Positions 2,751 to 37,973 are shown, numbered from the stretch's first letter. The stretch is DNA of 49,589 nt from Acidobacteriota bacterium (GCA_013694845.1 JACDBQ010000046.1:1-49589), one strand, 5' to 3'. Notes: generated from the sequence alone by a model not told the origin. Numbers and translations: made by a program.

Positions 2751-2785
2751 ATGAGGGATGGGGGATCAGGGATGGCGGTTCCAGG
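2751..2785. repeat. heptanucleotide tandem array, 5 units
   Basis: ATGAGGG ATGGGGG ATCAGGG ATGGCGG TTCCAGG, all in phase. Located in the gap upstream of accC, at the left border of the degraded island. Confidence 0.7.
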
Positions 2786-2819
2786 GCGTACCAAACTGCA
2801 TACCGGAGACCACGCTTCC

Positions 2820-2993
2820 CTAGATCGTTTGACACTTGTTGAGCTCAGCCTCGGACCGCGCCAGTCTCCATACGTACCTGATAAAGTCGCCCGCCCCCGG
2901 CCACTCGGACAGTTCGCGCAAGTACGCCCGGTAATAAAAACGAAAGACCTCGATCGGGCCGCGCTGGATACGGAGTCTCCTCAAGAACGGCAT
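2820..2993 (-). CDS. possible small orphan ORF (57 aa) downstream of the RHS fragment
   Basis: MPFLRRLRIQRGPIEVFRFYYRAYLRELSEWPGAGDFIRYVWRLARSEAELNKCQTI. Lies in a locally AT-richer stretch. No recognisable family. Its position after an RHS remnant would fit an orphan immunity-type gene, but that is speculative. Confidence 0.25.
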   Translation of the reverse strand: MPFLRRLRIQRGPIEVFRFYYRAYLRELSEWPGAGDFIRYVWRLARSEAELNKCQTI

Positions 2994-3440
2994 CACGATG
3001 TGCAAGTACAACACGACGCTCTGGTTCGGTGAGATCGACTGTTTTGACCACCGGCCTGAAACCACACCGCACGCTCGTGAACGAAGACAGCGACGCCGAC
3101 CGGGCGGTGTAGGTCGTCACCCCGTTGACCGAGCGCGACACGCGCAGCCCGGAGGGATCGTAGCCGTAGGTGGCATTGACGTTCGGTCCCGTGAACTGGG
3201 TTACCAGGCCGACGCGTTGTCTGATAGGTGCCGCGACCATCGGCCTGGAGTTGCCCGAGATCGCTGTCGCCGAGGGACTCGGTCCGCGCACCCGTCGTCG
3301 ATGCCAATCGGCGCGTGCTGGCGTTGTAGTGGATAGGGCGTCGTCCCGGCCCCGTCTCCATCAAACGATCACCGGAGGGGGTGGTACTCGCCACGATCGC
3401 TGCCGCCAAGGCCCCCACCGCGTCCAGGCGGTTGCGCCTT
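2990..3440 (-). pseudogene. RHS/YD-repeat protein fragment, frameshifted
   Basis: Two frames carry YD-repeat-like text. One reads NRLDAVGALAAAIVASTTPSGDRLMETGPGRRPIHYNASTRRLASTTG. After a frame change the other reads VGLVTQFTGPNVNATYGYDPSGLRVSRSVNGVTTYT. No start codon, no RHS core and no C-terminal toxin domain. Confidence 0.45.
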
Positions 3441-4206
3441 GATCACCTTAACTGAAGCGAAGACCTGCTCCAATGTCTTTGGATAAGTCAGATGGTCGGA
3501 ACGCGATTTGGCGGACGAGCCGGTGTCGAAATCAGAAATGGGGCCTGGTACCTTGTCACAGTCAGTCAAAGTCGCGTCGACCCGATTCGATCGATCATTC
3601 CTGTGGTCCGTACTCGACGCCTCGGCCCGTGACCTTGATCTGCACGGGGCTGGCCGCGGCAGGGATCCTCAACCTGCGGTCGTCGAACGAGGGGCCGCCT
3701 TCAAATCGGACGGACGCGGAAATCCAGTCAGTGATCGGACATTCCAGTCGAATAGTCTCCGCAACGGCGAGCTCGAAGACCAGCAACAAATCCTGGCATT
3801 CGATCGATATCACACTTAAGCGAAAAGGGGAACTGTTGGTGAAGGACACAGAACGTGTAGCCGGAAGGCGGCCGTTCGCATTGACGAATCGAAGGGCATT
3901 GGGTCGAATCCAGTCTTCGGTTGGAAATTCCTGGCGAAATGCGACGTCACGACGATCGGCGCGGAAGACGACGAGCGGCTCGTTTCAAGAGCGGTCCACC
4001 AACTCTGCACGCACGACGTACGAGACGAACTCGGCCCGTCGGTTTGCTGTGTAACTCGCCGCGCAGCCGGACCTGATAACCGGCGGAGGATGTCTGCGTC
4101 GTGTAAGTGGCTTGAGACGTCCGATACGTTCGACTTCGCTGGCGAATGGATTCTGCCGCCGAAGGAATTGCACAGATGCGCGTGTCCCCGGCTGACACGG
4201 CACACC

Positions 4207-4212
4207 TATAAT
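4207..4212 (+). promoter_or_regulatory. perfect TATAAT -10 hexamer 8 nt upstream of ATG 4221 (possible leaderless transcript)
   Basis: tataat at 4207-4212. I found no convincing -35 element. Confidence 0.3.
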
Positions 4213-4220
4213 GGCTGCGC

Positions 4221-4445
4221 ATGGGAAGCAAGGCGGCTCGCGAGGCCGCGCAACGCCGGTCCCGGCGAGTGGCCGCCATGTCACCTGCCGAGCGCGTCGC
4301 CCTGGCGCATCGGCTTGCTGAAGCGGGGATCGCCGCCTACATGCTGACGCACGGCATCGATCGCCGTACGGCCGTCGCCCGGATCAAGGCGACGCGCCGG
4401 CTGGGCCGCCGGCACTCCGCGTGCGACGCTGCCGATGAACATTGA
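4221..4445 (+). CDS. small basic protein, putative antitoxin-like partner of the downstream nucleotidyltransferase-fold gene
   Basis: 74 aa. MGSKAAREAAQRRSRRVAAMSPAERVALAHRLAEAGIAAYMLTHGIDRRTAVARIKATRRLGRRHS. Overlaps the next ORF by 11 nt. Confidence 0.5.
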   Translation: MGSKAAREAAQRRSRRVAAMSPAERVALAHRLAEAGIAAYMLTHGIDRRTAVARIKATRRLGRRHSACDAADEH

Positions 4446-4693
4446 TCCGGTTCGCCGTGCGCTCGACGCGATCGCCGCGCCCTATGCGCTGATCGGCGGA
4501 CACGCGATGGCGGCGCGCGGCTACCCGCGCTTCACCGTCGATGTCGATCTACTGACAACCGATCACCGCGTGCTGAAACGGGAGACCTGGACGGCGTTGG
4601 AGCGAACAGGGACTGCCGTCGACCGCCGCACGTCGCACGTCGCACGTCGCACGTCGCACGTCGCACGTCGCACGTGGAACATCGCACGTGTCC
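4435..4693 (+). pseudogene. nucleotidyltransferase-fold protein truncated after ~64 codons by a heptamer array
   Basis: The N-terminus ALIGGHAMAARGYPRFTVDVDLLTTDHRVLKRETWTALERTGTAVDRR looks like the start of a nucleotidyltransferase fold (GG...R...DxD). The frame then runs into (CGCACGT)n, translated as RRTSHVARRTSHVARRT. After that it is only open antisense to the 3' end of pccB. Confidence 0.5.
4627..4689. repeat. heptanucleotide microsatellite, (CGCACGT) x7, one diverged unit, then one more unit
   Basis: Seven perfect in-phase units at 4627-4675, then GGAACAT, then CGCACGT at 4683-4689. Ends 4 nt before the pccB stop codon. Confidence 0.95.
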
Positions 4694-6235
4694 TTACAAC
4701 GGGATATTCCCATGCTTCTTGGGCGGATTCTTGTCTCGTTTGGTCTCGAGGGTCGCGAGTGCGGCAATCAGCCTGGCGCGCGTCTGCCGGGGGCGGATTA
4801 CTTCGTCCACGAACCCGCGAGCCGCGGCGACGTAGGGGTTGGCGAACTTCTCCTTGAACTCGGCAACGCGTTTCGCCCGCGCCGCATCCTTGTCGGAGGC
4901 GGCGTCGATCTCACGCTTGTAGAGAATGTTCACCGCGCCTTCGGGGCCCATCACCGCGATCTCGGCACTCGGCCAGGCGAAGTTCACGTCCGTCCGTATG
5001 TGCTTGCTGGACATGACGCAGTAGGCGCCGCCGTAGGCCTTCCGGGTGATGACGGTGAGCTTCGGCACGGTGGCTTCCGCATACGCGAACAGGAGCTTGG
5101 CGCCATGGCGGATGATCCCGCCGTACTCCTGGCGCGTGCCGGGCAGAAAACCGGGAACGTCTTCGAACGTGACCAGCGGGATGTTGAAAGCGTCGCAAAA
5201 ACGGACGAACCGGGCGGCCTTGACTGACGCGTCGATATCGAGCGTGCCGGCAAGGTGGGCCGGCTGATTCGCCACGATTCCCACGCTGCGTCCCCCGAGC
5301 CGGGCGAACCCGACGATGATGTTCTTCGCGTAGTGGCGATGGACTTCGAGGAACGCCTGTTCGTCCGCGATGATGTGCACGAGATCGTGCATGTCGTAGG
5401 GCTGATTCGGCGACTCCGGCACGAGCGTCTCGAGCGCTTCGTCCTCGCGGTCGACCGGGTCCAACGTCTCGCGCCGCGGCGCCTCGTCCACGTTGTTGCC
5501 CGGCAGATAACTCAGGAGCTCGCGGATCGTTCGCAGGCAGTCACGGTCGTCGGGAGTCGAGAAATGCGCCACGCCGCTGATCTCGTTGTGAGTCCGGGCG
5601 CCGCCGAGCTCTTCCTTGGTCACCTCTTCGTTCGTGACCGTCCGTATGACGTCGGGCCCGGTCACGAACATGTAGCTCGTGCCCTCGACCATGATGTTGA
5701 AGTCGGTGATCGCCGGCGAGTACACGGCCCCACCGGCGCACGGCCCCATGATCGCGGAAATCTGCGGAATGACGCCTGAGGCCAGGGTGTTCCTGAGAAA
5801 GATGTCGGCGTAGCCCCCCAGTGACAGCACGCCTTCCTGGATGCGCGCCCCCCCCGAGTCGTTGAGCCCGACGATCGGCGCGCCCATCTTCAAGGCGAGA
5901 TCCATCAGCTTCACGATCTTTGCCGCGTTGGTCTCGGAGAGCGATCCGCCGAAGACGGTGAAGTCCTGCGCGAAGGCAAAGACGGGCCGGCCATCCACCC
6001 GGCCCTGTCCCGCGACGACGCCATCGCCCGGGATGATCTGCTCGTCCATCCCGAAATCCCGGCACCGATGCGTCACCAGCTTGTCGACCTCCTGGAACGT
6101 CCCGGGATCGAACAGCAGGTCGATCCGCTCACGCGCGGTCAGCTTGCCGGCGTCGTGCTGCTTCTTCAATCGATCTTCGCCGCCGCCCAGTTCGGCGCGG
6201 CGCTCGAGATCTTCGAGATATTTGAGTGTGTTCAT
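4694..6235 (-). CDS. pccB: acyl-CoA carboxylase carboxyltransferase subunit (propionyl-CoA carboxylase beta / methylmalonyl-CoA carboxyltransferase type)
   Basis: 513 aa. [51 protein letters not shown] and [13 protein letters not shown] are typical carboxyltransferase 12S/PccB motifs. Confidence 0.93.
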
Positions 6236-6250
6236 TCGGTCGGGTCGGAA

Positions 6251-6285
6251 GCTATCAGCTATCAGCCATCAGCTGTCAGCCATCG
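6251..6285. repeat. heptanucleotide tandem array, 5 units
   Basis: GCTATCA GCTATCA GCCATCA GCTGTCA GCCATCG. The reverse complement reads GATGGCT GACAGCT GATGGCT GATAGCT GATAGC, which resembles the GAT-type arrays at 2751 and 23257. Confidence 0.8.
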
Positions 6286-6427
6286 TTCTGCACATGATCT
6301 ACGCCTCTGGCACAAAGAGCACGACGAGCACAAGGGACACAAGAAAGGTCGTAGGGTTCCTGGTGACCTTCGTGAGCCTCGTGTTGATATCGTTCCAACG
6401 CCGGCAGACTGCTTTCCACGAGAGGGC

Positions 6428-7081
6428 TCAGACTTTCGCGGCCTGGGCCTGTTCCCAGTCCTTCAGGAATTTCTCGAGACCGATGTCGGTCAGCGGATGC
6501 TTGAAGAGCGCTTCGATCACCGCCGCCGGGCACGTGCAGATGTCCGCGCCGAGCCGCGCGGCCTCGACGATGTGCATCGGGCCACGGGTAGAAGCAACCA
6601 GGATCTCGGTCGTGAACTGGAAGTTCTCGAAGATCTCCACGATGTCGGAAATGAGCCCCATGCCGGAGGTGGCAATGTCGTCTAGCCGGCCGACGAAAGG
6701 ACTCACGTAGGTGGCGCCGACTTTGGCCGCGAGCAACGCCTGGGCCGCCGAGAAGATCAGCGTCACGTTGACCCGCTTGCCTTCACCCGACAGCGCCTTG
6801 CACGCCTTGACCCCCTCGCGCGTGAACGGCACCTTGACCACGATGTGCTCGTCGATCGCCGCCAGCTCGCGTCCTTCGCGGATCATGCCGTCCGCGTCGG
6901 TCGCCACCACTTCCGCGCTGGTCGGGCCCTGCACGATCTGGCAGATCTTCTTCAGGATCTGCTTGTAATCGCCTGGCTCCTTTGCCAGCAGCGAGGGATT
7001 GGTCGTGATCCCGTCGATGATGCCGAGCGGCACGAGGCCTTCGATTTCCTTCAGATTCCCGCTGTCGATGAAGATTTTCAT
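6428..7081 (-). CDS. tal: transaldolase / fructose-6-phosphate aldolase (short TalC/Fsa type)
   Basis: Starts at MKIFIDSGNLKEIEGLVPLGIIDGITTNPSLLAKE (internal Met 53 of track ORF 6428..7237). VTLIFSAAQALLAAKVGATYVSPFVGRLDD is a typical motif. Confidence 0.9.
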   Translation of the reverse strand: MKIFIDSGNLKEIEGLVPLGIIDGITTNPSLLAKEPGDYKQILKKICQIVQGPTSAEVVATDADGMIREGRELAAIDEHIVVKVPFTREGVKACKALSGEGKRVNVTLIFSAAQALLAAKVGATYVSPFVGRLDDIATSGMGLISDIVEIFENFQFTTEILVASTRGPMHIVEAARLGADICTCPAAVIEALFKHPLTDIGLEKFLKDWEQAQAAKV

Positions 7082-7302
7082 GATTGTTTCCCTACCGGAT
7101 TCGTGAGTTCCCCCACGCCTTCGACTTTGATGGTGACGATGTCCCCCCGGCTCCAGCGGCCCGACGCCGGACGGTGTGCCGGTCGAGATCACGTCACCAG
7201 GCAGCCGCGTCATGTTCGCGGGGATGTAGGCCGCCATTCGCCGTCCCGCTCGACCACGTGCCGCAGCTGGCCCTGGTGATCGATTCTGAAGAAACGCTGC
7301 AT
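7078..7302 (-). pseudogene. fumarylacetoacetate hydrolase (FAH) family remnant with an internal deletion and a +1 frameshift
   Basis: An N-terminal stub MQRFFRIDHQGQLRHVVERDGEW is joined out of frame to the FAH C-terminal motif AAYIPANMTRLPGDVISTGTPSGVGPLEPG. A +1 shift in the C6/G6 run at 7143-7148 is then needed to read DIVTIKVEGVGELTNPVGKQS*. That TGA overlaps the tal ATG (ATGA). Confidence 0.6.
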
Positions 7303-7324
7303 CTGATCGCGGTCTCGATAAAAG

Positions 7325-8533
7325 CTACCGGGCTGACTCTTCGACCCGCGCCGACTGCGGGCTCGTATTGGGCGGCGTGGCACGGTCCACCGCCACGACG
7401 ACATACCCGTACCGAACGCCGGATTTGACCGTCGTGTCCTGGTAGGTCGTCTCGCGGATCGGGGTCGCGGTGAGCGCTTGAAGTGTGTCACCGGGAACCT
7501 CACCGCGCAAGATCAGGTATCCGGCTATGTCGCTCTCGGTATTGGCTTCCCAGATCAGACTGATGGTTCCGGCACTGCCGACGGCCGAGAGCCCCTTCGG
7601 CGCGGCGGGCGCGAAGATATCCGACGGCGTGACACACTGCGCGGCCGACGGCAGGCTCTCGAGACTGACCGTTCCGATCACAACCGCAGTGCGGACCACG
7701 AAGCACTCCTCGGTGCCGAACGCGACACCGGTCCGCTCGAACGCGGGCGAGGTCAGCAGCACCGGGTTGAGCGGAGCACTCGCGCCGGGCCGGTAGATGT
7801 TGAAGACCGGCGCTGCGGCGGCCGGGTTCGCTGCCGCGGGGGCGGTCCACGAGACGGTCACCGCCGTTTCGGTGAACTTGACGGCGACCGCATCCGGGGC
7901 GAGGGGCAGCTCGACGAGCGGCAGGATCACGCGCGCGGACGGCTGACCAGGGCGTCCGCCTCGCGTCAAGCCGCGCACCGCGTAAACACGCCGCACGACC
8001 GCTGGCTCGTTGGCGGGCGCAGCGGCCGTTGCCGGCGCGGCCGCTCCGGTAGCCGCTGGCGGCACGACCTCGGGCGGCGCCGGCGTGGTGATCTGCGGCT
8101 TCAGCTTCGCTTCGTTCAGCTCCTCGACGAAGCTGGTGACGTCTCCCGCCGCCGGGCGCTGATCGGTGGCGCCTTCGGCCGTGGGCTCCGGCTCCCCTTC
8201 TTTGCGGGGCGGCTTCACCGGAATGGTGCCGACGAGATACCTGGAGGTCAGGAGATCGCGGTTGGGCGGGTTGGCCGATTCGGCCGCGACGGTGACGGCG
8301 AACACCTCGAGACGATCTAGGGCGACGGGCCCCGGCCCCTCTACGTTCGCGGTCGGAAGCACGAACTGGAGCCGCACCTCGTGGCCGCTGCGACGCGCCT
8401 TGACGTCGGTCACCGGCAACGGCACGAAACGCAGCGGCGCGAGCGGCGGACCCTTCTTGCCACAGGCGGCGAATGCACAGAGCCCAAGCGCAACAGCAGC
8501 CACCTGGCGCCATCGACGCGGACACGGGTTCAC
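7325..8533 (-). CDS. lipoprotein with Ala/Pro-rich linker and fibronectin-III-like C-terminal domains
   Basis: 402 aa. Signal peptide plus lipobox (LCAFAAC). Motifs [13 protein letters not shown] and [23 protein letters not shown]...YGYVVVAVD. 4-nt overlap with the hslU stop. Confidence 0.8.
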
Positions 8534-9912
8534 AGGATGTACCGCGACAGGTCTTCGTTCTTCGCGATTTCAGCGAGCGCCCCATCCACATACGCTTCGT
8601 CGATGGTGACCTCCTTGCGTTCGAGGTCGGGCGCCTCGAACGAGATCTCGTCCAGCAGCTTCTCCATCACGGTGTGGAGGCGGCGCGCGCCGATGTTCTC
8701 GGTCCGATCGTTGACCAGCATGGCGAAGTCGGCAATCCGCTGAATCGCTCCTTCGGTGAAGCGCAGCGTCACCCCCTCGGTCGACAGGAGCGCCATGTAC
8801 TGCTTGATCAGCGCGCTCCTGGGCTCGGTGAGGATCCGGACGAAATCCTCGCGGCTGAGCGCTTCGAGCTCGACCCGGATGGGGAAACGCCCCTGCAGCT
8901 CCGGGATCAGATCCGAGGGCTTCGACACGTGGAATGCTCCGGCCGCGATGAACAGGATGTGATCGGTCTTCACCATCCCGTACTTGGTGTTCACCGTGGT
9001 CCCCTCGATGATAGGCAGGATGTCGCGCTGAACGCCCTCGCGGCTCACGTCGGGGCCGTGCCCGCCTTCGCGCCCCGCCACCTTGTCGATCTCGTCGACG
9101 AAGATGATCCCGGCTTCCTGCACCCGCTCGACCGCGGCGCGGGCGACGGTATCCATGTCGATCAGCTTCTGCTCTTCTTCCTGGGCCAGCGCCTCGAGCG
9201 CCTCCGGCACGCGCAGACGGCGCTTTCTCGTGCGGCCGCCGAAGAGACCCGGCAACATGTCCTTCACGTTGATGTCGACTTCCTCCACGTTCGACCCGGC
9301 GATGATCTCGAACGAGGGGAACGATTTTTCGCGCACGTCGATCTCGACGTGCTTGTGATCCAGCCGGCCTTCTCGTAATTGCTCGCGCAGTTTCTCGCGC
9401 GTGCGCTGGCCCTGGTCGCGCAGCGATGACGCGGTCTCGTCGTGGTCCGGCGACGAGGGCAGCGGGGGCAGGAGCAGGTCGAGCACGCGCTCTTCAGCCG
9501 ACTGGCGCGCCTTCTCGTGGACCTCGGCGCGACGCTCGTCGCGGACCATGTCGACCGCCAGCTCCACCAGGTCCCGCACCATCGACTCCACGTCGCGACC
9601 GACGTAGCCGACCTCGGTGAACTTGGAGGCCTCCACCTTGATGAAAGGCGACTGCGCGAGCTTGGCCAGGCGTCTCGCGATTTCGGTCTTGCCGACACCG
9701 GTCGGACCGATCATCAGGATGTTCTTCGGTGCGACGTCCTCGGCGAGCTCCGGCGGGAGCTTCTGGCGGCGCGAGCGGTTTCTCAACGCAATCGCGACCG
9801 CGCGCTTGGCCTGGGTCTGGCCGACCACGTGCTTGTCGAGCTCGGCAACGATCTGGCGCGGCGTCAGCGCCTCGATGGTGCTGGTGGTATGGGCGGGAAG
9901 AATGATGGCCAT
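8530..9912 (-). CDS. hslU: ATP-dependent protease ATPase subunit HslU
   Basis: 460 aa. [31 protein letters not shown], Walker [26 protein letters not shown]. Confidence 0.95.
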
Positions 9913-9917
9913 CCGGA

Positions 9918-10448
9918 TTACAACGCTTCGATCGTGATGTTGTCGTTGGTGTAGATGCAGATCTCGCTGGCGATACGCATCGACTGTTCGGCGATCGCAC
10001 GGGCGTCGAGTGCCGTGTGCTGCGCGAGCGCCTTGGCTGCCGCCATCGCGAACGGGCCGCCGGAGCCGATCGCGATGATCCCGTCATCAGGCTCGATCAG
10101 GTCGCCGGTGCCCGAAAGCAGGTAGGTCGCCTTGGCGTCCATGACCACCAGCATCGCTTCGAGACGGCGGAGCGCCCGGTCCGTCCGCCAGTCTTTGGCA
10201 AGCTCGACCGCCGAGCGCTCGAGATTGCCGCGGTACTGCTCCAGCTTCGCTTCGAACCGGGCGAACAGGGCGAACGAGTCGGCTGCCGATCCGGCGAAGC
10301 CGGCGAGCACGCGATCGTTGTAGAGGCGCCGGATCTTCCGGGCGGCCTGCTTGACCACGGTGTTCCCAAACGTAACCTGCCCGTCACTGGCCATGACCGC
10401 ACTATCCAGGTGTCGGACGGCCAAGACTGTCGTTGCGTGAATCATCAA
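9918..10448 (-). CDS. hslV: ATP-dependent protease subunit HslV (CodW/ClpQ-like N-terminus)
   Basis: 176 aa. [13 protein letters not shown]...GDGQVTFGN-like, [17 protein letters not shown]. Strongly resembles Bacillus CodW, including a short extension before the TT dipeptide. Confidence 0.93.
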
Positions 10449-10622
10449 GAATCGGGCTCGTGAGGTGCTCTCGCGAGTCTACCAGAGCGTGGGCGGGCCC
10501 ACCGGCTGCCGAACCGCCCCTTCCGGACCACCACCGCCCTCGCGTGATTGTCCGCCGGTCCGGACGGCGCTGCCCCCAACCCAGGACACGTCCGCCCGGA
10601 CCTTGCCCTGTTTCCTTAGGAT

Positions 10623-10639
10623 ATTGAGAAGTTCTCAAT
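10623..10639. promoter_or_regulatory. perfect 17-bp palindrome ATTGAGAA-G-TTCTCAAT (candidate operator)
   Basis: 8-bp arms around one central G, AT-rich within a GC-rich gap. It abuts the -24 element of the sigma54-type promoter. Confidence 0.5.
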
Positions 10640-10655
10640 GGCAGGGCTGTTGCTT
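10639..10655 (+). promoter_or_regulatory. sigma54-type promoter (TGGCA-N6-TTGCT)
   Basis: TGGCAGGGCTGTTGCTT. GG at 10640-41 and GC at 10652-53 are separated by exactly 10 nt. Lies about 40 nt upstream of ATG 10696, which is preceded by an AGGAG Shine-Dalgarno sequence. Confidence 0.55.
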
Positions 10656-10695
10656 TTGACGGAAGTGCAGGTTTCGGTCACGATACAGGAGCGTT

Positions 10696-11655
10696 ATGAC
10701 TCGCCGAACTTTGACGTCGATTTTCACCGCCGCCACCCTGACGCTTGCGCTGCCCCTTGCAGCTCAGGACAGCAAGGGTAACCAAGGGCAGGCCCGTCCC
10801 AATCCCAGCGGCGGCAGCAGCGGCTCGGCAGTGTCACGGCCATCGGGCGGCTCGGGCGGATCCAACGGCGGCGGCAGTTCCTCGTCGAGCGCCCCGTCGG
10901 GCGGTTCATCCGCGTCGCGCCCGAGCGGCGGCAGCGACGATGGCGGCGCCAGAGCGGTGCCCGCCCGTCCCGAGCGACGCAACGAGGACCGCGACACACC
11001 GCGTGGCTCGAATGCCGACCAACGCCGTGTCGCTCCCGCCGGTTCCAGCGCATCGTCGGGCGGTCAGGACGACGGGGATCGCCGCCGAGCCGTGCCGACC
11101 TACAGCCGCCCGCGCGACGGCAGGACGCCGATCGGCACGGCGGTTGATCGCGTCGGACGTCCACCGGACCGCGGCCGCAACGGCGGCTACGGAAGCGGCT
11201 ATTACTATGATCCGTACTCCCGATACAGCTACTACTACAACCGCTATCCGTACGGGTACTACCAGCCCGGATACGGCCTCGGCGTCGGGTACTTCTACGA
11301 CCCGTGGATGTGGGGATACGGTTCGCCGTACGCTTACGGCGGCTCCTACGATCCATACGGGGGCTACGGAGCCTACGGCGGCGGCGGCGGCGGCGGTGGC
11401 GGATATAGCCGCAGACAGTATCGTGATGCCGGTTCGTTGCGGTTGAAGGTGAAGCCCGAGCACGGCCAGGTCTATGTGGACGGCTACTACGTCGGTGAGG
11501 TCGACAGCTTCGACGGCGTGTTCCAGCGGATGCCGATCGAAGCCGGGACGCACCGCATCGAGATCCGCGCCGAAGGCTACGAGCCCGCACAGTTCGAAGT
11601 GATGGTCGTCCCGGGGGAGACGGTCACCTACAGAGGCGAGCTGAAGCGACGGTGA
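10696..11655 (+). CDS. secreted low-complexity (Ser/Gly then Tyr/Gly-rich) protein with C-terminal PEGA domain
   Basis: 319 aa. Signal peptide MTRRTLTSIFTAATLTLALPLAAQ. SRPSGGS-type repeats. A Y/G block (GYGSGYYYDPYSRYSYYYNRYPYGYYQPGYG...G9). The C-terminus is PEGA-like: LRLKVKPEHGQVYVDGYYVG...IEAGTHRIEIRAEGYEP...VVPGETV. Confidence 0.85.
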   Translation: MTRRTLTSIFTAATLTLALPLAAQDSKGNQGQARPNPSGGSSGSAVSRPSGGSGGSNGGGSSSSSAPSGGSSASRPSGGSDDGGARAVPARPERRNEDRDTPRGSNADQRRVAPAGSSASSGGQDDGDRRRAVPTYSRPRDGRTPIGTAVDRVGRPPDRGRNGGYGSGYYYDPYSRYSYYYNRYPYGYYQPGYGLGVGYFYDPWMWGYGSPYAYGGSYDPYGGYGAYGGGGGGGGGYSRRQYRDAGSLRLKVKPEHGQVYVDGYYVGEVDSFDGVFQRMPIEAGTHRIEIRAEGYEPAQFEVMVVPGETVTYRGELKRR

Positions 11656-11666
11656 TTCACGGATCA

Positions 11667-11698
11667 GGGACAGTCCCCTTCTCGAAGGTGGCTGTCCC
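11667..11698 (+). terminator. stem-loop after the PEGA gene (GGGACAG...CTGTCCC with inner CCTTC-TC-GAAGG)
   Basis: 7-bp outer stem at 11667-73 / 11692-98 plus a nested 5-bp stem. No U-tract. Preceded by a single GATCAGG word at 11662. Confidence 0.35.
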
Positions 11699-11724
11699 CG
11701 CTCCGCAAGGTATCCTTCTGAAAG

Positions 11725-12117
11725 GTGCCTGTCCCCGACCGAATCGTTTCGTCCGTCGCAGCCATCTCGGGCCTCTACGACTCTGTCGTAGGGGCCCTTT
11801 TGCTTTTCGCTCCCGGAATGCTGGCCTCGGTGTTCGGCGTGCCGCCGGCCAGCCCGCGGATCTTCTCTGATCTGAACGCGCTGTTTCTTCTCGCTGTGGG
11901 AGCGGGTTATTACCTGCCGTGGCGCGAACCGACGCGGTATCTGGGATACATGTGGGTGATGGGACCGCTGCTGAAAGGCGGTGGGGCGGTGCTGTTCCTG
12001 CTCGACTATGTGTATCGCGGCTCGCCGGCGTCGTTTCTGTTGTTCGCCGCGAGCGACGGCGCGCTCGCGCTGCTGACGCTCTACGCGTTGCTCGCGCCGG
12101 ACCGCAGGACGAAGTAG
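11725..12117 (+). CDS. small integral membrane protein (about 4 TM segments)
   Basis: 130 aa, GTG start, hydrophobic segments throughout (AISGLYDSVVGALLLFAPGMLASVF, LNALFLLAVGAGYYL, GGGAVLFLLDYV, ALALLTLYALLA). Confidence 0.65.
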   Translation: MPVPDRIVSSVAAISGLYDSVVGALLLFAPGMLASVFGVPPASPRIFSDLNALFLLAVGAGYYLPWREPTRYLGYMWVMGPLLKGGGAVLFLLDYVYRGSPASFLLFAASDGALALLTLYALLAPDRRTK

Positions 12118-13508: not shown

Positions 13509-13521
13509 GGGAGAGCGGCGT

Positions 13522-14016
13522 CTACTGGGTCAGAAGCTTGCGCTCGAGCCGAACGCGGTGCAGCTCCACCCACTGAGCGGCAGGCTGACGAACGAGGATG
13601 ACCGCGTCCACGTCACGGAAGAAGCTGTTCTGGAGCATGTCGAGCCGTGTTTGCGGCGGGTCTCCTTTGAAGCCGACGGTCGAGCGGATGGTGATCAGTT
13701 CGGTTTGTTTGTTGTCGAACCGCACACGCTGCTTGAAGACCTCGTCGTGGACGTCGCCGTTGTCGGCGAACTTGAAGACCACGTTGAGTGAGATGGCCGA
13801 GAGGTCCTGGTCCGATGTGTTGCGCAGGCGGAACGAGAAATTCGGGACGAGTTTGTTCTTGCCGTCCTGGATGCCCGCGTCGAACCACCCGGTACCGACG
13901 TCGGTGACCTGCAGCGCCTGTTTGACGTCGACGGTGCCGGCGCACGAACCCGCGGAGAGCAGCGCGGCCAACAGCCCGAAGCGGGCAGCCTGGATCTTCA
14001 GGCGTCCGTGCGACAT
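13522..14016 (-). CDS. lipoprotein of unknown function
   Basis: 164 aa. Signal peptide plus lipobox (LLSAGSC). Beta-rich, ordinary amino-acid composition. Co-oriented and tightly spaced within the ECF sigma operon. Confidence 0.75.
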   Translation of the reverse strand: MSHGRLKIQAARFGLLAALLSAGSCAGTVDVKQALQVTDVGTGWFDAGIQDGKNKLVPNFSFRLRNTSDQDLSAISLNVVFKFADNGDVHDEVFKQRVRFDNKQTELITIRSTVGFKGDPPQTRLDMLQNSFFRDVDAVILVRQPAAQWVELHRVRLERKLLTQ

Positions 14017-14039
14017 GCTGGCGATTGTAGCCCAGCCCT

Positions 14040-15607: not shown

Positions 15608-15627
15608 TGCGCGCGGGGCCCCACCCC
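15608..15627. repeat. 20-nt word TGCGCGCGGGGCCCCACCCC (copy 1; exact reverse-complement copy at 21752-21771)
   Basis: The exact 20/20 match in opposite orientation was verified base by base. Both copies are intergenic. Related GGGGCCC(C)CACCCC words occur at about 47591-47626. Confidence 0.85.
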
Positions 15628-15635
15628 AACAGTCG

Positions 15636-16220: not shown

Positions 16221-16255
16221 GTCGTTGTCGTAGGTTTAGACGCCGCGCCCCGACG

Positions 16256-16308
16256 GTCAGTCGGAAGACTGTTGTCAGTCGGGTGACTGTTGTTAGTCGG
16301 GTGACTGG
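16256..16308. repeat. three tandem 18-bp units, each with an internal CAGTC-N4-GACTG palindrome
   Basis: GTCAGTCGGAAGACTGTT / GTCAGTCGGGTGACTGTT / GTTAGTCGGGTGACTGG. Located in the divergent gap between the ECF sigma gene (start 16220) and the GAF kinase gene (start 16350). Confidence 0.85.
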
Positions 16309-16349
16309 CCCTTTTCCCCGCAACATCTTAAAATGCGCCCACTTCCCCG

Positions 16350-17570: not shown

Positions 17571-17595
17571 AGTGAACGTTCCGAGCTCCGCAGAT

Positions 17596-18186
17596 ATGGA
17601 CGACGCTTTTCTGACAACCGAAGAGGTACTCGAGTACCTCCAGGTAAACCTCCGCACGGTGTACCGCCTCATCAAGGCCGGCAAGATCCCGGCGGTCAGG
17701 GTCGGCCGTCAGTGGCGATTTCGGCGGCGGGACATCGATGCGTGGCTCGAAACTCAACGCGCTCGCGCCGGGCGGTCCGGCGCCACGTCGGCGCGTCACG
17801 CGGGCCCGGTTGGAGGACGCGCACGGGTGCTCGTCGTCGATGACGAAGAGACGATTCGGGATCTGCTCTCCAAGACGCTCGCCCTGGCCGACTACGAAGT
17901 CGATCTGGCACCCGACGGACGAACCGCGGTCGACCGCATGCGGATCATTCAATACGATCTGCTCATTACCGACCTTCGCATGCCAGGCGTCGACGGCTTG
18001 AACGTGATCCGCGAAGCGCGCCGGCTGAAGGCTGACATCCCCGTGATCATCGTGACCGGCTACTCCAGCGAAGCGAGCGCCATCGAGGCGATCAACCTGG
18101 GTGTACAGGGCTACCTCACCAAACCGTTCCGGGTCCCGCGCGTGCTCGCGGCGGCCGCAAAGGCGCTCCGCGAAGTCGCAAGTTGA
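17596..18186 (+). CDS. response regulator with N-terminal excisionase/MerR-type HTH and C-terminal receiver domain
   Basis: LTTEEVLEYLQVNLRTVYRLIKAGKIPAVRVGRQWRFRRRDIDAWL, then RVLVVDDEETIRDLL...DLLITDLRMPGVDG...GYLTKPF. Alternative GTG start at 17572. The track ORF from 17440 overlaps the kinase gene. Confidence 0.85.
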   Translation: MDDAFLTTEEVLEYLQVNLRTVYRLIKAGKIPAVRVGRQWRFRRRDIDAWLETQRARAGRSGATSARHAGPVGGRARVLVVDDEETIRDLLSKTLALADYEVDLAPDGRTAVDRMRIIQYDLLITDLRMPGVDGLNVIREARRLKADIPVIIVTGYSSEASAIEAINLGVQGYLTKPFRVPRVLAAAAKALREVAS

Positions 18187-20279
18187 TCCAGCTCGTTTCC
18201 CTCAGCAAATCTTTTGGCGGGCGCGTCCTGCTCGACTCGGTGAGTTGGCAGATCGACGATCGCGAGCGCGTCGGCCTCAGCGGACCCAACGGCGCGGGCA
18301 AGACGACCCTGCTCAAAATGCTCGCAGGATTCGAGGAGTCCGACGCCGGGTCCATCGTCAAGCCGGCCGGCCTGACCGTCGGATACCTGCCGCAGGACGG
18401 CCTCAACCACAGCGGACGGACGCTGATCGAGGAGGCGGGCCTCGCCTTCAAGCCGCTACTCGACATGCGTGACGAAATCAGCACGCTCGAGGAGAAGCTG
18501 GGGGAAGAGAATCCAGAAGAGGCACACGCCGCGATGCTCGAGCGCTACAGCGACCTTCAGGACACATTCCGCCGCCGCGAGGGTTACAGCATCGACCTGA
18601 AGATCACGACCGTGCTCCGTGGTCTGGGCTTCACCCCCGACGATCTCCACAAGCGGTCCGAAACATTTTCGGGTGGGTGGCAGATGCGCATCGCGCTCGC
18701 CAAACTTCTCCTCGGCCGGCCGGGCCTGCTCCTGCTGGACGAGCCAACCAACCACCTGGATCTCGAGGCGAGGAACTGGCTCGAAGAGTACCTGGCCGAC
18801 TACCCTCATGCCGTCATCCTGGTCTCACACGACCGCTTCTTCCTGGATGCCGTGGTCACCCGGATCACCGAAATCGGCTTGCGCAGACTGACCGATTACA
18901 CGGGGAACTACACCGATTACCTGCAGGAGCGCGAGGCGCGCATGGAGCGTCTCCGGCAGATGAAACGGGACCAGGACGAGGAAGTCGAGCGGATGCAGGC
19001 CTTCATCAACCGATTCCGGTACCAGGCCACCAAGGCGGCCCAGGTGCAGAGCCGGATCAAGATGCTCGACAAGGTCGTGCCGATCGAGATCCCGCCCGAG
19101 CGGAAACGTGTCCGCTTCACCTTCCCGGCGTGCGCCCGTAGCGGGCGGATGGTGCTCGAGCTCAAAAACATCCGGAAGGCCTACGACCGCCGCGCGGTCC
19201 TCGATGGCGTGAACGCGCACATCGAGCGCGGCGATCGCATCGCTCTCATCGGTCCCAATGGCGCCGGCAAGTCGACGATGATGCGGATGCTCTCGGGAGT
19301 CGAGCCGCCCGATTCGGGTACCCGGACCGAAGGGCACCAGGTGATCACGCAGTACTTCGCGCAGGACGAAGCGACCCGGCTCGACCCGACGCGCACGGTA
19401 TACCAGATTCTCGCCGGGGATGCGCCCCTCCAGATGGTCCCGCACATCCGCAACATCCTCGGCGGCTTTCTCTTCTCGGGGGACGACGTCGAAAAGCCGG
19501 TGAGAGTGCTGTCGGGCGGAGAGCGTACGCGGCTCGCGGTCGCACGGATGCTGCTGCGCCCGTCCAACACGTTGGTGCTCGACGAGCCAACCAACCACCT
19601 GGACCTCGACTCCAAGGACGTTTTGCTTGAAGCGCTAGAGGACTTCGGGGGCACGTTGATCTTCGTCTCGCACGACCGGTACTTCGTCGACAACCTCGCC
19701 ACCAAAGTGATCGAGATCGGCGGGGGCCAGGCGCTCCTCTACCCCGGCAACTACGAAGAGTTCCTCTGGAGCCGAAAGCACGCTGCCAGTTCCCAGCTTC
19801 CAGCGTCCAGCTCCGACCGTTCGGCGGCCACCGCTCGGGTGTCCTCGAAGCCCGACGTCGCCACTCGCAAGCGAGAAGTTCGAGGCGGGAAACAGAATCC
19901 TGGAGACAGGCCAGAACCAGCAAGCGCGCCGCTGGAAGCTGGAAGCCGGGCGGTACAACCTGGAGCCGGGAAGCTGGAAGCTGGCAGCGGGAAGCTGGAA
20001 GCTGAAAAGCAGCCCACTTACGACGATCGAAAGCGCCAGGAAGCCGAGGCGCGGAAGGAGCGCAAGGCGGAAGGCGCCCGGCGCCGCCGGGTGGATGAGC
20101 TCGAGGCCCGCATCGCCGAACGCGAGGCCGAGGTGAAGGCAATCGAGGCCCGGATGACGGCAAAGGGCTTCTACGACAACCACGACACGGCCAAGCCAGT
20201 CATCGACCGCCACCAGGCGCTCATGTGGGAGGTCGGCGACCTGATGGCACAGTGGGAGGCATTGCAGCACGGCGGCTGA
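18183..20279 (+). CDS. ABC-F family ATPase (two ABC domains, coiled-coil C-terminal domain) with an expanded linker
   Basis: 698 aa, TTG start overlapping the upstream stop. Two Walker A motifs (GPNGAGKTT, GPNGAGKST), two signature motifs (FSGGWQMR, LSGGERTR) and no TM domain. C-terminal KRQEAEARKERKAEG...coiled coil. Confidence 0.92.
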   Translation: MIQLVSLSKSFGGRVLLDSVSWQIDDRERVGLSGPNGAGKTTLLKMLAGFEESDAGSIVKPAGLTVGYLPQDGLNHSGRTLIEEAGLAFKPLLDMRDEISTLEEKLGEENPEEAHAAMLERYSDLQDTFRRREGYSIDLKITTVLRGLGFTPDDLHKRSETFSGGWQMRIALAKLLLGRPGLLLLDEPTNHLDLEARNWLEEYLADYPHAVILVSHDRFFLDAVVTRITEIGLRRLTDYTGNYTDYLQEREARMERLRQMKRDQDEEVERMQAFINRFRYQATKAAQVQSRIKMLDKVVPIEIPPERKRVRFTFPACARSGRMVLELKNIRKAYDRRAVLDGVNAHIERGDRIALIGPNGAGKSTMMRMLSGVEPPDSGTRTEGHQVITQYFAQDEATRLDPTRTVYQILAGDAPLQMVPHIRNILGGFLFSGDDVEKPVRVLSGGERTRLAVARMLLRPSNTLVLDEPTNHLDLDSKDVLLEALEDFGGTLIFVSHDRYFVDNLATKVIEIGGGQALLYPGNYEEFLWSRKHAASSQLPASSSDRSAATARVSSKPDVATRKREVRGGKQNPGDRPEPASAPLEAGSRAVQPGAGKLEAGSGKLEAEKQPTYDDRKRQEAEARKERKAEGARRRRVDELEARIAEREAEVKAIEARMTAKGFYDNHDTAKPVIDRHQALMWEVGDLMAQWEALQHGG
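19782..19816. repeat. heptamer array inside the ABC-F CDS (TTCCAGC polarity), 5 units
   Basis: GCTGCCA GTTCCCA GCTTCCA GCGTCCA GCTCCGA. Translated in frame as AASSQLPASSSDR. Confidence 0.75.
19931..20007. repeat. heptamer array inside the ABC-F CDS (GCTGGAA polarity), 11 in-phase units
   Basis: GCTGGAA GCTGGAA GCCGGGC GGTACAA CCTGGAG CCGGGAA GCTGGAA GCTGGCA GCGGGAA GCTGGAA GCTGAAA. It has the opposite polarity to 19782-19816. Translated as LEAGSRAVQPGAGKLEAGSGKLEAEK. Confidence 0.8.
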
Positions 20280-20294: not shown

Positions 20295-20362
20295 CTTCGG
20301 CAACTTCTCGACCTTCCCGCTTCCCCGATCTTCGGCGACTTCTCGACCTTCGTGCTTCCCCG
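20295..20362. repeat. two tandem 35-nt (5 x 7) copies just after the ABC-F stop
   Basis: CTTCGGCAACTTCTCGACCTTCCCGCTTCCCCG (20295-20327) and CTTCGGCGACTTCTCGACCTTCGTGCTTCCCCG (20330-20362), period 35. The word GACCTTCGTG also occurs near 6365. Confidence 0.8.
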
Positions 20363-21744: not shown

Positions 21745-21797
21745 GCGCGCGGGGGTGGGGCCCCGCGCGCATTGATAAAAAATGCACACGCATTTTT
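21745..21797 (+). terminator. GC-rich hairpin (GCGCGCGGGG..CCCCGCGCGC) followed by an A6TGC-ACAC-GCAT5 hairpin with a T-run
   Basis: 10-bp GC stem at 21745-54 / 21761-70, containing the reverse copy of the 20-nt word. A second 8-bp stem at 21778-85 / 21790-97 ends in TTTTT. Lies between the kinase and the sigma54 activator gene. Confidence 0.4.
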
Positions 21798-23256: not shown

Positions 23257-23298
23257 GATTACCAATTACCGATCAGGGATCAGGGATTAGCGATCGCA
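23257..23298. repeat. heptanucleotide tandem array, 6 units (GAT-type)
   Basis: GATTACC AATTACC GATCAGG GATCAGG GATTAGC GATCGCA. It fills most of the 62-bp gap between the convergent ntrC-like and xerC genes. Confidence 0.85.
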
Positions 23299-30728: not shown

Positions 30729-30742
30729 GCGGACCATCCACC

Positions 30743-30859
30743 CTAGGAGCGTGTCCGAGTAATCGGTTTTTGCCAAACCGCGCGCCGAAAACATTAGGAA
30801 AAGCGCGCGCGGCGATCGCGAAAACCGCTGATTTCGGTATTACTCGGACACGCTCCTAG
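30743..30859. repeat. 117-bp palindromic element (perfect 21-bp terminal inverted repeats, partly self-complementary 75-nt interior), MITE/REP-like
   Basis: CTAGGAGCGTGTCCGAGTAAT (30743-63) and ATTACTCGGACACGCTCCTAG (30839-59). The interior has further complementary segments (CGGTTTTTGCC / GCGAAAACCG, GCGCGC blocks). Lies between the lipoprotein stop and rplU. Confidence 0.8.
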
Positions 30860-30978
30860 TGTCGCCAGGCGGTCGAGCCCTCACCTTCCGCCGATTGCCC
30901 CAAGCCAGGTCGACGTGCTACCCTGATACCTTTGCACTCAGCGATTAGGGCCTCCCTGTAGGGGCTGACGGAGGGAAC

Positions 30979-36567: not shown

Positions 36568-36646
36568 GATGAGTCGGATAATCTTATCCCACCGTCGCAC
36601 GTGATATATTTGCCCTGTTTCCCCGCCTGATCTCAGCGAATGTCGC

Positions 36647-37297
36647 ATGTCCGTTGATTCGCCCGCCGCGCAGCCGGCGACCTCCGATCGCCTGATTGAG
36701 CAGTGCCTCAGCGGCGATCAGGCCGCGTGGGAGCTGATCGTCAAGCAGAACTGGCGGAAGGTCTTCAACGTCGCATACAAGTTCGTCGGGAAGCACGAGG
36801 AAGCCGAAGACCTCACGCAGGACATCTTCATCAAAATCTTCCGAGCGCTCGCGACGTTCGATCGGCGCGCGAACTTTCAGACATGGATCGTCAGTATCAG
36901 CCGCAACCTCTGCATCGACCACTACCGCAGCGTGCGGAAGGAGCGGCAGACGATCGCGCGTGAAGTAGACACCGGCGACCTCCAGCCGGCCTCGACCGAT
37001 CGCACGCCCTACGCGGCCGCCGAGCACCAGGATCTCCGCGCGACGTTGCGCGAGGCGCTCCAGACCCTGCCGATCACCTTGCGCACGGCCGTCATCCTTC
37101 GCGATTTGCAGGAATTGTCCTACCAGGAGATTGCGGAAAAGCTGGAGCTACCAGAAGGCACGGTGAAGTCACGCATCAATCGAGGCCGCCTCGAGCTGGC
37201 GCGGCAACTGAAACGTCTGCAGGATAAACAGTCGGCGATGCGCAGTCGCGGGGTTCCTTCCCGCGCGCGCGGACGCCGGCCCGGAGCGCAGGAATGA
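36647..37297 (+). CDS. ECF-type sigma-70 factor
   Basis: 216 aa. Region 2 EDLTQDIFIKIFRALATFDRRANFQTWIVSISRNLCIDHYR. Region 4 ILRDLQELSYQEIAEKLELPEGTVKSRINRGRLEL. Confidence 0.9.
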   Translation: MSVDSPAAQPATSDRLIEQCLSGDQAAWELIVKQNWRKVFNVAYKFVGKHEEAEDLTQDIFIKIFRALATFDRRANFQTWIVSISRNLCIDHYRSVRKERQTIAREVDTGDLQPASTDRTPYAAAEHQDLRATLREALQTLPITLRTAVILRDLQELSYQEIAEKLELPEGTVKSRINRGRLELARQLKRLQDKQSAMRSRGVPSRARGRRPGAQE

Positions 37298-37635
37298 ATC
37301 TGAACACCGAACACGCCAACGGGGTTGCCATCGTCCGCGTCGGTGAGGCGCGACTGATGTATCCGCTACTCTCTGAATTCTCCAACGTCGTGACCGAGCT
37401 CATCGCCTCGGGGGAGAAGAAGATCATCGTCGATCTGTCGACGGTCGGATACGTCGACAGCGCCACGATCGGGTGCCTGATGGATCTCTACCGGCAGGCG
37501 AGCGCCGCCGGTGGCGGCCTCAAGCTCGCCGGTGTGCAGAAGCGCGTCGAGACCATGCTGACGATGACCGGCGCCCAGAATTTCATCGAGGTACACCCCG
37601 ATGAGCCCAGTGCCGTCAAAAGCTTCGGAGCCTGA
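37294..37635 (+). CDS. STAS-domain protein (anti-sigma-factor antagonist type)
   Basis: 113 aa. KIIVDLSTVGYVDSATIGCLMDLYR has the conserved DS-x-x-G Ser. ATGA overlap with the sigma gene stop. Confidence 0.85.
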   Translation: MNLNTEHANGVAIVRVGEARLMYPLLSEFSNVVTELIASGEKKIIVDLSTVGYVDSATIGCLMDLYRQASAAGGGLKLAGVQKRVETMLTMTGAQNFIEVHPDEPSAVKSFGA

Positions 37636-37639
37636 GCCG

Positions 37640-37924
37640 ATGCGCACCATCAAACTGACGACCGGATCGAACGTTCCGCTCGATGGCGACCTCCTGACGG
37701 TGCTGGAGATCCTGTACCTGGAGCTGAGCGCGAAACGGGACCTCGACCACTCGTTCGAGGACACGGTGCGGGAGATCCAACACGTCATCGAGCAGTTGAC
37801 CGACGAGGAACGACGGCAGTACCTGTCGGAAAGCCTCTTCTTGAATTTTGTGTCGTACGAGAACGAGCGCCTCGGCGCCTACATGAAGAAGCTGGGCGCG
37901 GACCAGTCCACAATCGATCAATAG
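37640..37924 (+). CDS. small acidic helical protein of unknown function
   Basis: 94 aa. MRTIKLTTGSNVPLDGDLLTVLEILYLELSAKRDLDHSFEDTVREIQHVIEQLTDEERRQYLSESLFLNFVSYENERLGAYMKKLGADQSTIDQ. Starts 5 nt after the STAS stop. Codon and GC usage are slightly lower than in neighbouring genes. Confidence 0.65.
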   Translation: MRTIKLTTGSNVPLDGDLLTVLEILYLELSAKRDLDHSFEDTVREIQHVIEQLTDEERRQYLSESLFLNFVSYENERLGAYMKKLGADQSTIDQ

Positions 37925-37930
37925 TTCCAC

Positions 37931-37973
37931 GATCCGCAATCGACAGTGCGTCGATCCGAAATCCGCAATCAGC
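37931..37973. repeat. degenerate heptamer repeats (GATCCGC AATCGAC AGTGCGT / GATCCGA AATCCGC AATCAGC) with an ATCGAC-N5-GTCGAT hairpin
   Basis: The word ATCCGCAATC occurs twice (37932-41 and 37961-70). There are two 7-nt-phased blocks offset by 1 nt. Located in the 62-bp gap before the radical SAM gene. Confidence 0.55.

Follow-up and report, generated by a model that had tools for sequence, protein, structure and literature searches.

We analysed a 49.6-kb stretch of DNA (GC ~64%) from an Acidobacteriota bacterium (GCA_013694845.1 JACDBQ010000046.1), hereafter the window, in which short tandem arrays of 7-nt units (heptamers) lie dispersed between and within genes. The arrays adjoin or occupy genes for a carboxyltransferase, a biotin carboxylase, an ABC-F ATPase, a sigma-54 activator/response regulator (Pfam), a XerC-like recombinase and a radical-SAM protein. 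Arrays were detected with Tandem Repeats Finder (TRF), with our own match/mismatch period scan and by direct reading, and the chance level was taken from dinucleotide shuffles. Rfam and tRNA scans of the whole window returned no match. The host is an acidobacterium, probably of the Vicinamibacterales, as judged from sequence comparison: for the carboxyltransferase gene the best locus is 88% identical and the named Vicinamibacterales loci are 80% identical. A cyanobacterial origin, hinted at by the palindrome GCGATCGC (15 copies in the whole window vs 7.1 expected, ~2-fold; one of them inside the array at 23257), was rejected; gene content and best hits are acidobacterial.

Further sets of sequences were used. 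A metagenome scan with the histidine kinase yielded 80 contigs of relatives (583 kb, GC 65%, protein identity 64-82%, mostly with JGI metagenome identifiers), which together with the window make up a 632-kb lineage set, with arrays counted at three copies or more. Another set consists of 80 genome loci from many phyla, and an independently anchored set of high-GC loci was used for array density. Individual loci are referred to by L numbers. An independent assembly (GCA_020063875.1, L081) is 99.88% identical to the window over 4.1 kb and carries an identical array at 23257. Exact-protein matching returned no contig for the carboxyltransferase and, for the response regulator, only this 4.1-kb twin contig, with identical arrays.

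A first description of the window, made without database searches and called here the sequence-only reading, had listed eight strict, in-phase heptamer arrays. Six of these are solid (2750, 4627, 6250, 19782, 19931 and 23257); the one at 37931 is phase-slipped, and the repeat at 20295 is not heptameric (Table 1).

Table 1. Repeat arrays of the window and the features that hold them (positions counted from the first nucleotide of the window).
Feature	Position	Strand	Remarks
Gene-poor insert, ~2 kb	2681..4693		Splits the carboxyltransferase and biotin carboxylase genes; heptamer array at each edge
G-rich heptamer array GATGAGG GATGGGG GATCAGG GATGGCG	2750..2785		3.6 to 4 units; TRF, reading
CGCACGT x9 array	4627..4689		Seven perfect units, one diverged, one more; TRF score 105
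AGCTATC x5 array (GATAGCT on gene strand)	6250..6284		TRF, reading
ABC-F (Uup-like) ATPase gene	18183..20279	+	Pfam ABC_tran x2, ABC_tran_Xtn, ABC_tran_CTD at aa 632-695
GCTKCCA array, ~4.4 units	19782..19816	+	Encodes SSQLPASSS in frame; ABC-F linker
GCTGGAA array, ~10.6 units	19931..20007	+	Encodes LEAGS/GKLEAGS repeats in frame; ABC-F linker
35-nt tandem duplication, 1.9 copies, 90% matches	20295..20362		3' of ABC-F stop; TRF
Array GATTACC AATTACC GATCAGG GATCAGG GATTAGC GATCGC	23257..23298		TRF 23271-23295, extended by reading
Degenerate AATCCGC-type period-7 array, one phase slip (one 8-nt unit)	37931..37973		Lag identity; no TRF call

TRF calls the first array at 2750-2774 (3.6 copies, GATGAGG type, score 36); the TTCCAGG proposed as its fifth unit does not fit the repeat. 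It lies 70 nt 5' of the biotin carboxylase start. The CGCACGT array begins 4 nt past the carboxyltransferase stop, and a truncated AbiEii-like open reading frame (ORF; 4435-4857) reads through it according to ORF translation. At 15-49 nt upstream of the carboxyltransferase start, the 6250 array occupies a 5' leader and has a period-14 higher order too (90% matches, TRF). The two arrays in the ABC-F gene are called at 19782-19812 (GCTTCCA x4.4) and 19931-20004 (67% matches, with a period-21 higher order as well); their opposite polarity had been recognised from the start, and they are indeed mutual reverse complements. Past the stop of that gene, the repeat at 20295-20362 had been taken for five heptamers per copy ('5x7') and proved to be a 35-nt duplication in which just one neighbouring pair of heptamers, CTTCCCG CTTCCCC, can be seen; this pair complements the GCTGGAA linker arrays, and lag-7 identity is only 0.28 over the 240-nt spacer that contains it. 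The 23257 array fills a 62-nt spacer (lag-7 identity 0.58) on which two genes converge, with the stop of the sigma-54 response regulator at one end and that of the XerC-like recombinase at the other. The 37931 array occupies another 62-nt spacer, from a stop at 37924 to the start of the radical-SAM gene at 37987, and shows a lag-7 identity of 0.51 vs 0.13-0.30 at lags 4-6 and 8-12. Units differ between the sites of the window, except for a GGGATNN type common to 2750 and 23271, and GATCAGG, once thought to link the arrays, is a common word (19 occurrences on both strands vs 8.7 expected).

Period 7 is the dominant tandem repeat of this acidobacterial lineage. The window scan gave four period-7 arrays vs 0.0 in 20 dinucleotide shuffles, and zero arrays at periods 4, 5, 8, 10, 11, 13 and 15. 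The lineage set holds 70 period-7 arrays, 64 of them in the 80 related contigs (583 kb), vs a shuffle mean of 3.8 for 632 kb. The corresponding counts (632 kb; 583 kb; shuffle mean for 632 kb) are 4, 4 and 4.4 at period 5; 25, 25 and 2.0 at period 6; 11, 11 and 4.2 at period 8; 16, 13 and 1.8 at period 9; 3, 3 and 1.0 at period 10; and 3, 3 and 0.8 at period 11, so that periods 5, 8, 10 and 11 stand at or within ~4-fold of the shuffle level. The arrays are thus not confined to the window, and they exceed periods 6 and 8 as well as shuffles, the two outcomes on which the sequence-only reading had made its case depend. Removal of identical array sequences leaves 63 period-7 arrays. Restricting the count to non-coding DNA, period 7 makes up 40 of the 55 arrays with at least three copies (632 kb), and in spacer autocorrelation the lags 7, 14 and 21 stand out among non-triplet lags. 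Across the 80 genome loci from many phyla, period 7 is likewise the top non-triplet period (52 arrays vs 10 each at 5 and 8); its arrays cluster in some Acidobacteriota and in one locus each of Methylomirabilis, Bacteroidales and Chloroflexi.

The arrays are unevenly placed. More than half of the period-7 arrays (40/70) lie within the non-coding 11% of the sequence (632 kb). Per 10 kb of the non-redundant lineage set there are 0.56 arrays in coding sequence, 3.7 in co-directional, 1.5 in divergent and 19.1 in convergent spacers; in the independently anchored high-GC set the densities are 0.15 in coding sequence, 2.5 in co-directional and 0.4 each in convergent and divergent spacers. Arrays tend to adjoin gene ends, the median distance to the stop being 6 nt, and six of them lie no further than 2 nt from a start. 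A position right after stops, as first suggested, holds as a trend only: in co-directional spacers 15 of 23 arrays are closer to the stop, and this preference over the start is not significant (p = 0.21).

Arrays inside an ORF had also been proposed, correctly: those at 19782 and 19931 run in frame within the ABC-F ATPase, in the disordered linker that joins the second ABC domain to the C-terminal one. In 28 distinct relatives this linker measures 105-489 nt; it is heptamer-built in seven and 9-mer-built in six of them, and L086 retains the inverted SSQLPASSS / KLEAGS arrangement of the window. Judged from these sequences, the ABC-F linker is a general hot spot of tandem expansion. The 9-nt tandem repeats in the linkers of L089, L091, L107, L109, L110 and L111 (lag-9 identity 0.47-0.54) encode Gly/Ala-rich or VPxVP tripeptide repeats. 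The XerC-like protein of five relatives contains CGGATCC-type arrays that encode IRDPGSG repeats in a variable loop; in the window this loop is short and has no array.

Orthologous sites differ strongly in their array content. From ~33 distinct relatives the response regulator/XerC-like spacer was extracted: in twelve it is 3-22 nt long, at least ten carry heptamer arrays, and several others have plain GC-rich stem-loops. At least five unrelated unit families occupy this one spacer (GATTGNN, CCAGTTN/AACTGGN, CTCAGGG, GTAAGAA/TACTTCT, TCGCTGK and the GATTACC/GATCAGG of the window), and relatives whose response regulator is 84-91% identical to that of the window have 4 to 10 units per arm. Two series can be ordered by size. 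L090, L093 and L099 go from 2 units to 4 units to 4 + 4 inverted units, and the CCAGTTN hairpins of L142, L139, L143 and L151 share one and the same core, CTCGCGAGTATNTNCGCGA, flanked by arms of ~4, 5, 5 and 10 units each; this core and its arm motif are found solely at their one orthologous site (4/161 loci). In L151 three units (21 nt) are duplicated in just one of the two arms, and the extra copy stays unpaired. The spacer 5' of the carboxyltransferase gene ranges from 0 to 190 nt among relatives (0 nt in L010, L006 and L003) and holds TCAGCCA x3 in L036, an array of 9-mers accompanied by its inverted counterpart in L017 and GATAGCT x5 in the window. Turnover reaches coding sequence too: although the flanks of L145 match those of L149, L150 and L156 at 99% identity, its ABC-F linker is unrelated to theirs, with heptamer arrays vs a ~36-nt repeat. 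All that the linkers L145:565-718 and L149:2848-2971 have in common is GGCCGAAGAC, a single unit of the L145 array.

The 2750 and 4627 arrays mark the left and right edges of what had been called a decayed island. It is a real insert of ~2 kb, because in L017, L006 and L010 the biotin carboxylase gene follows the carboxyltransferase gene directly, and its only identifiable content is a sub-threshold AbiEii-like fragment. More specifically, searching the insert against Pfam and NCBIfam produced a single signal, a sub-threshold match to the AbiEii toxin N-terminus (truncated ORF from 4435), and none of the fetched loci resembles the insert at the DNA or the translated level.

A substantial subset of the arrays comes with an inverted partner. 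Among 123 period-7 arrays from all loci there are 13 pairs whose members are reverse complements separated by 11-118 nt, so about a fifth of the arrays belong to inverted pairs; same-unit direct neighbour pairs are absent from these 123. Seven of nine array-containing orthologous spacers fold into long predicted stop-to-stop hairpins (z -4.2 to -14.7, down to -78 kcal/mol), and the spacers of L093 and L138, with a single array each, fold no better than shuffles (z = -1.5 and 0.0). The imperfect hairpin predicted for the convergent spacer of the window itself, at 23257, is weaker (RNA fold z-scores: minus strand -3.7, plus strand -2.1). Within the ABC-F coding sequence the 19782/19931 pair is predicted to form a long hairpin of -113.5 kcal/mol (z = -3.6). 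Inverted pairs look alike in the Acidobacteriota, Methylomirabilis, Bacteroidales and Chloroflexi loci.

The arrays are not canonical intrinsic (Rho-independent) terminators, which combine a GC hairpin with a U-tract. A consensus terminator scan of window positions 1-20000 found no site at the 2750, 4627, 6250 and 19782 arrays, and a canonical terminator was detected elsewhere in the window, at 11769-11797. The 23257 hairpin lies outside that scan; it fills its spacer from stop to stop and leaves no room for a U-tract. By position and predicted stability the array hairpins match hairpin-only 3' stem-loops, with a putative function as terminator or stabiliser.

We consider it probable that the arrays are simple-sequence repeats of the heptanucleotide type, expanding at their own site through slippage of whole units, and that some have been co-opted as 3' hairpins. 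The seven perfect units at 4627 and the period-14 and period-21 higher order in the TRF calls are signs of growth in place, as are the one-arm duplication of L151, the two size-ordered series and the 0-190 nt range of the spacer 5' of the carboxyltransferase gene. Arrays would originate out of local sequence and would be resized by whole units of 7, 14 or 21 nt through replication slippage or misaligned pairing, surviving only where a change of length is tolerated, that is, in spacers beside gene ends and in disordered protein loops or linkers. In proteins, the addition of three units would make one 7-residue repeat and keep the frame. Units would drift and be homogenised within each array, and therefore the period would be conserved while the sequence would not. 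A subset of arrays may have been duplicated in inverted orientation and maintained as 3' stem-loops. These hairpins most likely do the job of GC stem-loops, because relatives hold an ordinary GC-rich stem-loop at the same spacer; the job could be that of a factor-independent bidirectional terminator or of a stem-loop protecting the 3' end. Complementarity of the second arm might be kept by selection or by quasipalindrome-type template switching. While we infer slippage as the mechanism of growth, the fast change is directly visible in orthologous spacers, which hold 0 to ~10 units per arm and other units. Of the earlier phrase 'expanding or inserting', the first half is in keeping with this model; signs of insertion or mobility are absent.

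The arrays represent a known repeat class in a new lineage, neither a new element type nor an inserting element. Like long simple-sequence repeats (SSRs), they have at least three head-to-tail copies (3.6 or more in six arrays of the window, TRF), occur at above-chance frequency and are mostly non-coding. As cited in two later papers (PMC4679880, PMC4692102), Mrazek et al. (2007) found heptanucleotide repeats to be the most abundant long simple repeats in most surveyed genomes, counted high-GC Burkholderia, Xanthomonas and Actinobacteria among the repeat-richest genomes, and proposed polymerase slippage. The arrays resemble these general bacterial heptanucleotide SSRs in their tandem 7-nt units, in the over-representation of period 7 among 5-11 nt, in their mainly intergenic location, in a unit that varies by site and lineage and in their high-GC hosts. 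What goes beyond the long-SSR surveys is the orthologous series of unit turnover and the array-armed hairpins, here in Acidobacteriota. In the literature searched we found no description of heptamer repeats for Acidobacteriota. The broader statement of the sequence-only reading, that a high-GC lineage of this kind had no equivalent, does not survive, as heptamer repeats have been published for Xanthomonas, Burkholderia and Actinobacteria, and for Geobacter too (PMC4679880, PMC4692102, PMC2700814).

The same reading had likened the arrays to the short tandemly repeated repetitive (STRR) sequences of cyanobacteria. The STRR format, a constant period with a variable unit, is borne out for the heptanucleotide tandem repeats here; a shared sequence family is not, the arrays having only the period in common and the named STRR units being absent. 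STRR sequences, reportedly described by Mazel et al. in 1990, are heptameric. Their units STRR1 (CCCCAGT), STRR2 (TTGGTCA) and STRR3 (CAACAGT) are each highly reiterated in heterocystous cyanobacteria. The arrays share with them 7-nt tandem units that are dispersed and mostly non-coding, but differ in having other units at almost every site and an acidobacterial host with sigma-54 regulators. For STRR1-3 we found no dimer with up to one mismatch in the window and no trimer with up to two mismatches in the 80 lineage loci.

Other published heptamer families are built on a single unit. Rehm et al. (2015, PMC4692102) describe GGGAATC repeats in Xanthomonas and GGGGAYT repeats in Nostoc whose length and sequence differ among close relatives at the same gene pairs; some of them are inverted pairs located where genes converge. 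The arrays described here are like the Xanthomonas repeats in their high-GC host and intergenic location, with GGGATNN units in two window arrays; unlike the Xanthomonas/Nostoc family, with one dominant unit and quadruplex potential, they have many unit types. GGGAATC, GGGGATT and GGGGACT are absent from the window, and in related contigs only GGGGATT is approached (up to two mismatches over three units, four loci). The TAACTGA repeats of Beggiatoaceae are a single-unit family located directly upstream of start codons (MacGregor 2015, PMC4679880); this unit is absent from the window and the lineage loci, and the L151 unit CCAGTTA, the complement of TAACTGG, is one base off it. In Geobacter metallireducens, heptanucleotide elements occur between and within genes, and their class 3 consists of inverted five-unit arrays (PMC2700814). 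Both systems share with ours short heptamer arrays beside gene ends, and the intragenic and inverted arrangement is like that of Geobacter; unlike these single-unit families, with tens to hundreds of sites, our arrays have no dominant unit.

As stable 3'-spacer stem-loops, often between convergent genes, the array hairpins also recall repetitive extragenic palindromic (REP) sequences, bacterial interspersed mosaic elements (BIMEs) and the hairpin-only ('I-shaped') terminators of high-GC bacteria. REP/BIME elements and hairpin-only terminators likely have a role in termination or in protection of mRNA 3' ends. REP palindromes have a conserved sequence and are mobilised by REP-associated tyrosine transposases (RAYTs). 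The stems here differ from REP in that they come from locally expanded heptamers and have no common sequence. Sequence comparison gives no indication that the arrays carry a conserved sequence at many non-homologous sites, which would mark REP sequences or miniature inverted-repeat transposable elements (MITEs).

Several observations weigh against in-place growth with co-option. Slippage alone leaves unexplained both the preference for 7 and the lack of enrichment at periods 5, 8, 10 and 11. Near-identical strain pairs show no simple gain or loss of one unit: L081 equals the window, and L092/L093/L094 as well as L125/L127 have equal TRF statistics (copy number, % matches, score) and array sequence. 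Identical units occur in 24 array pairs vs ~2.8 expected, a figure confounded by homologous sites and inverted pairs, which leaves room for a restricted unit repertoire. As to hairpins, the arrays at 2750 (z = +1.8), 6250 and 37931 (z = +0.3) show no RNA structure and the one at 4627 folds worse than shuffles (z = +2.5), all four being without an inverted partner and folding no better than shuffles; the 20295 duplication shows no structure either. A hairpin role would therefore cover only part of the array class, because most window arrays lack a partner or structure. Finally, 12 of the 16 arrays behind the convergent-spacer excess of the lineage set come from one orthologous spacer beside the anchor gene, and the excess is not present in the independently anchored set.

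A more far-reaching interpretation, which we regard as possible but doubtful, takes the array-armed hairpins for a distinct self-extending bacterial 3' element. An array would first expand by slippage and next acquire an inverted copy of itself, after which both arms would lengthen by 7-nt quanta and remain complementary, yielding stems of up to ~70 bp that would act as bidirectional terminators in lineages poor in canonical terminators, and the quantum would stem from a conserved property of the replisome or of hairpin-primed template switching common across phyla.

Proximity to gene ends, the 5' leader position of 6250-6284, unit sharing above chance and the recurrence of G-rich GGGATNN units at unrelated sites (window 2750 and 23271; L095, L101) could also reflect binding sites for a protein that reads ~7 nt per subunit, such as a cold-shock/S1-type RNA binder or a DNA-binding regulator, and regulates the adjacent genes. 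Heptad repeats are read by DNA-binding regulators in Vibrio ctx and in Streptomyces SARP promoters. A connection between CspB and heptamers has been discussed for the TAACTGA repeats (PMC4679880). We consider such a role unlikely and found no evidence for sequence-specific binding: the unit families at the response regulator/XerC-like spacer, at least five and unrelated, swap at one orthologous position where many relatives are arrayless, the neighbour genes are unrelated housekeeping genes, and like arrays also lie inside coding linkers.

It is rather improbable that the arrays are mobile or templated footprints, whether left by a MITE-like hairpin, by insertion and excision with 7-bp duplications, or by a reverse transcriptase or other polymerase copying a short template. 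Such an origin would fit the arrays at both edges of the 2-kb insert, the unrelated ABC-F linkers of strains with 99% identical flanks and a weak excess of metagenome contig ends near arrays (6 of 139 true ends within 60 nt of a period-7 array vs 2.1 expected). However, the arrays lack a common terminal or core sequence and sit at orthologous positions, and the sole conserved-core hairpin is limited to its own orthologous site. The array ends that were read are partial units, without target-site duplications, terminal motifs or flanking inverted repeats, and the copy-number series fit vertical inheritance. No transposase or reverse transcriptase was noted beside the window arrays, and the neighbouring tyrosine recombinase is in synteny in almost every relative whose response regulator/XerC-like spacer was surveyed.

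That the G-rich arrays act on transcription or translation as G-quadruplex elements of the Xanthomonas/Nostoc GGGNATC type is very unlikely. The units at 2750 (GGGATGA, GGGATGG, GGGATCA) and 23271 (GGGATCA, GGGATTA) do resemble GGGAATC and GGGGATT, and L095 has four tracts of three G (G3 tracts), with the Xanthomonas/Nostoc repeats as precedent (PMC4692102). Elements of this type would need a G3 tract in each unit and at least four consecutive tracts; the window arrays fall short of that, with only three at 2750 and two at 23271. The majority of arrays, such as CGCACGT, AGCTATC and GCTGGAA, are not of the G-rich kind, and none of the named units occurs in the window. Chance low-complexity sequence or an assembly artefact is scarcely credible: some claimed members are weak (2750 with its score of 36, 37931 without a TRF call, the non-heptameric 20295), but shuffles fall far short in the window and in the 632-kb set (0 and 3.8 vs 70), the 23257 array is reproduced by an independent assembly, and like arrays occur in many independent metagenomes.

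Other repeats accompany the arrays. The GC-rich motif GGGGCCCCACCCC has four occurrences with up to one mismatch vs 0.14 expected (window 15615-15627, 21752-21764 and 47591-47625); all copies are palindromic hairpins in spacers and form a second dispersed repeat, which is non-heptameric. Similar palindromes, GGGGCCCC, occur in the histidine kinase/response regulator spacers of L139, L142, L151 and L105. In the same spacer a hairpin, GGCTTCCGCCTTCAGGCGGAAGCC, is conserved in L090, L092, L098, L099, L100, L104 and L106; it recurs at another spacer in L146:5704-5753 and is a REP-like dispersed stem-loop of the lineage. The window further contains a 24-nt inverted repeat at 30740-30862 (96% complementary, arms 75 nt apart, in a stop-to-start spacer), resembling a large hairpin or MITE-like element, and an 18-nt tandem repeat, GTCAGTCGGGTGACTGTT x2.9, at 16256-16307 in the divergent spacer 16221-16349, each unit of which is a small palindrome, giving it the look of an operator array. 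L108:10163-10210 differs from L134 by a 47-nt indel within the histidine kinase gene, the contigs being otherwise 99.7-100% identical; as 47 nt is not a multiple of 3, either the assemblies disagree here or the allele is frameshifted. Short-read contigs end at or in tandem repeats at the start of L081 (= window 20341), at the end of L154 (vs L151:12713) and at the ends of L084, L110, L128 and L161. Contig ends at arrays hint at population heterogeneity or assembly difficulty.

Why seven-base units dominate among bacterial simple repeats is a question standing since the STRR paper of 1990 and the SSR paper of 2007. For annotation, the arrays mark hypervariable spacers and linkers, and short-read assemblies are likely to break at them. 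Among the by-products of this work, the array-armed hairpins and the orthologous growth series are of most use. The latter (0 to 2 to 4 to 4 + 4 inverted units, ~4 to ~10 units per arm, and in-frame linker arrays) could serve to quantify the initiation of arrays, their growth and the gain of a complementary arm, and could reveal whether arrays terminate transcription in Acidobacteriota, a major soil phylum with poorly known transcription signals.

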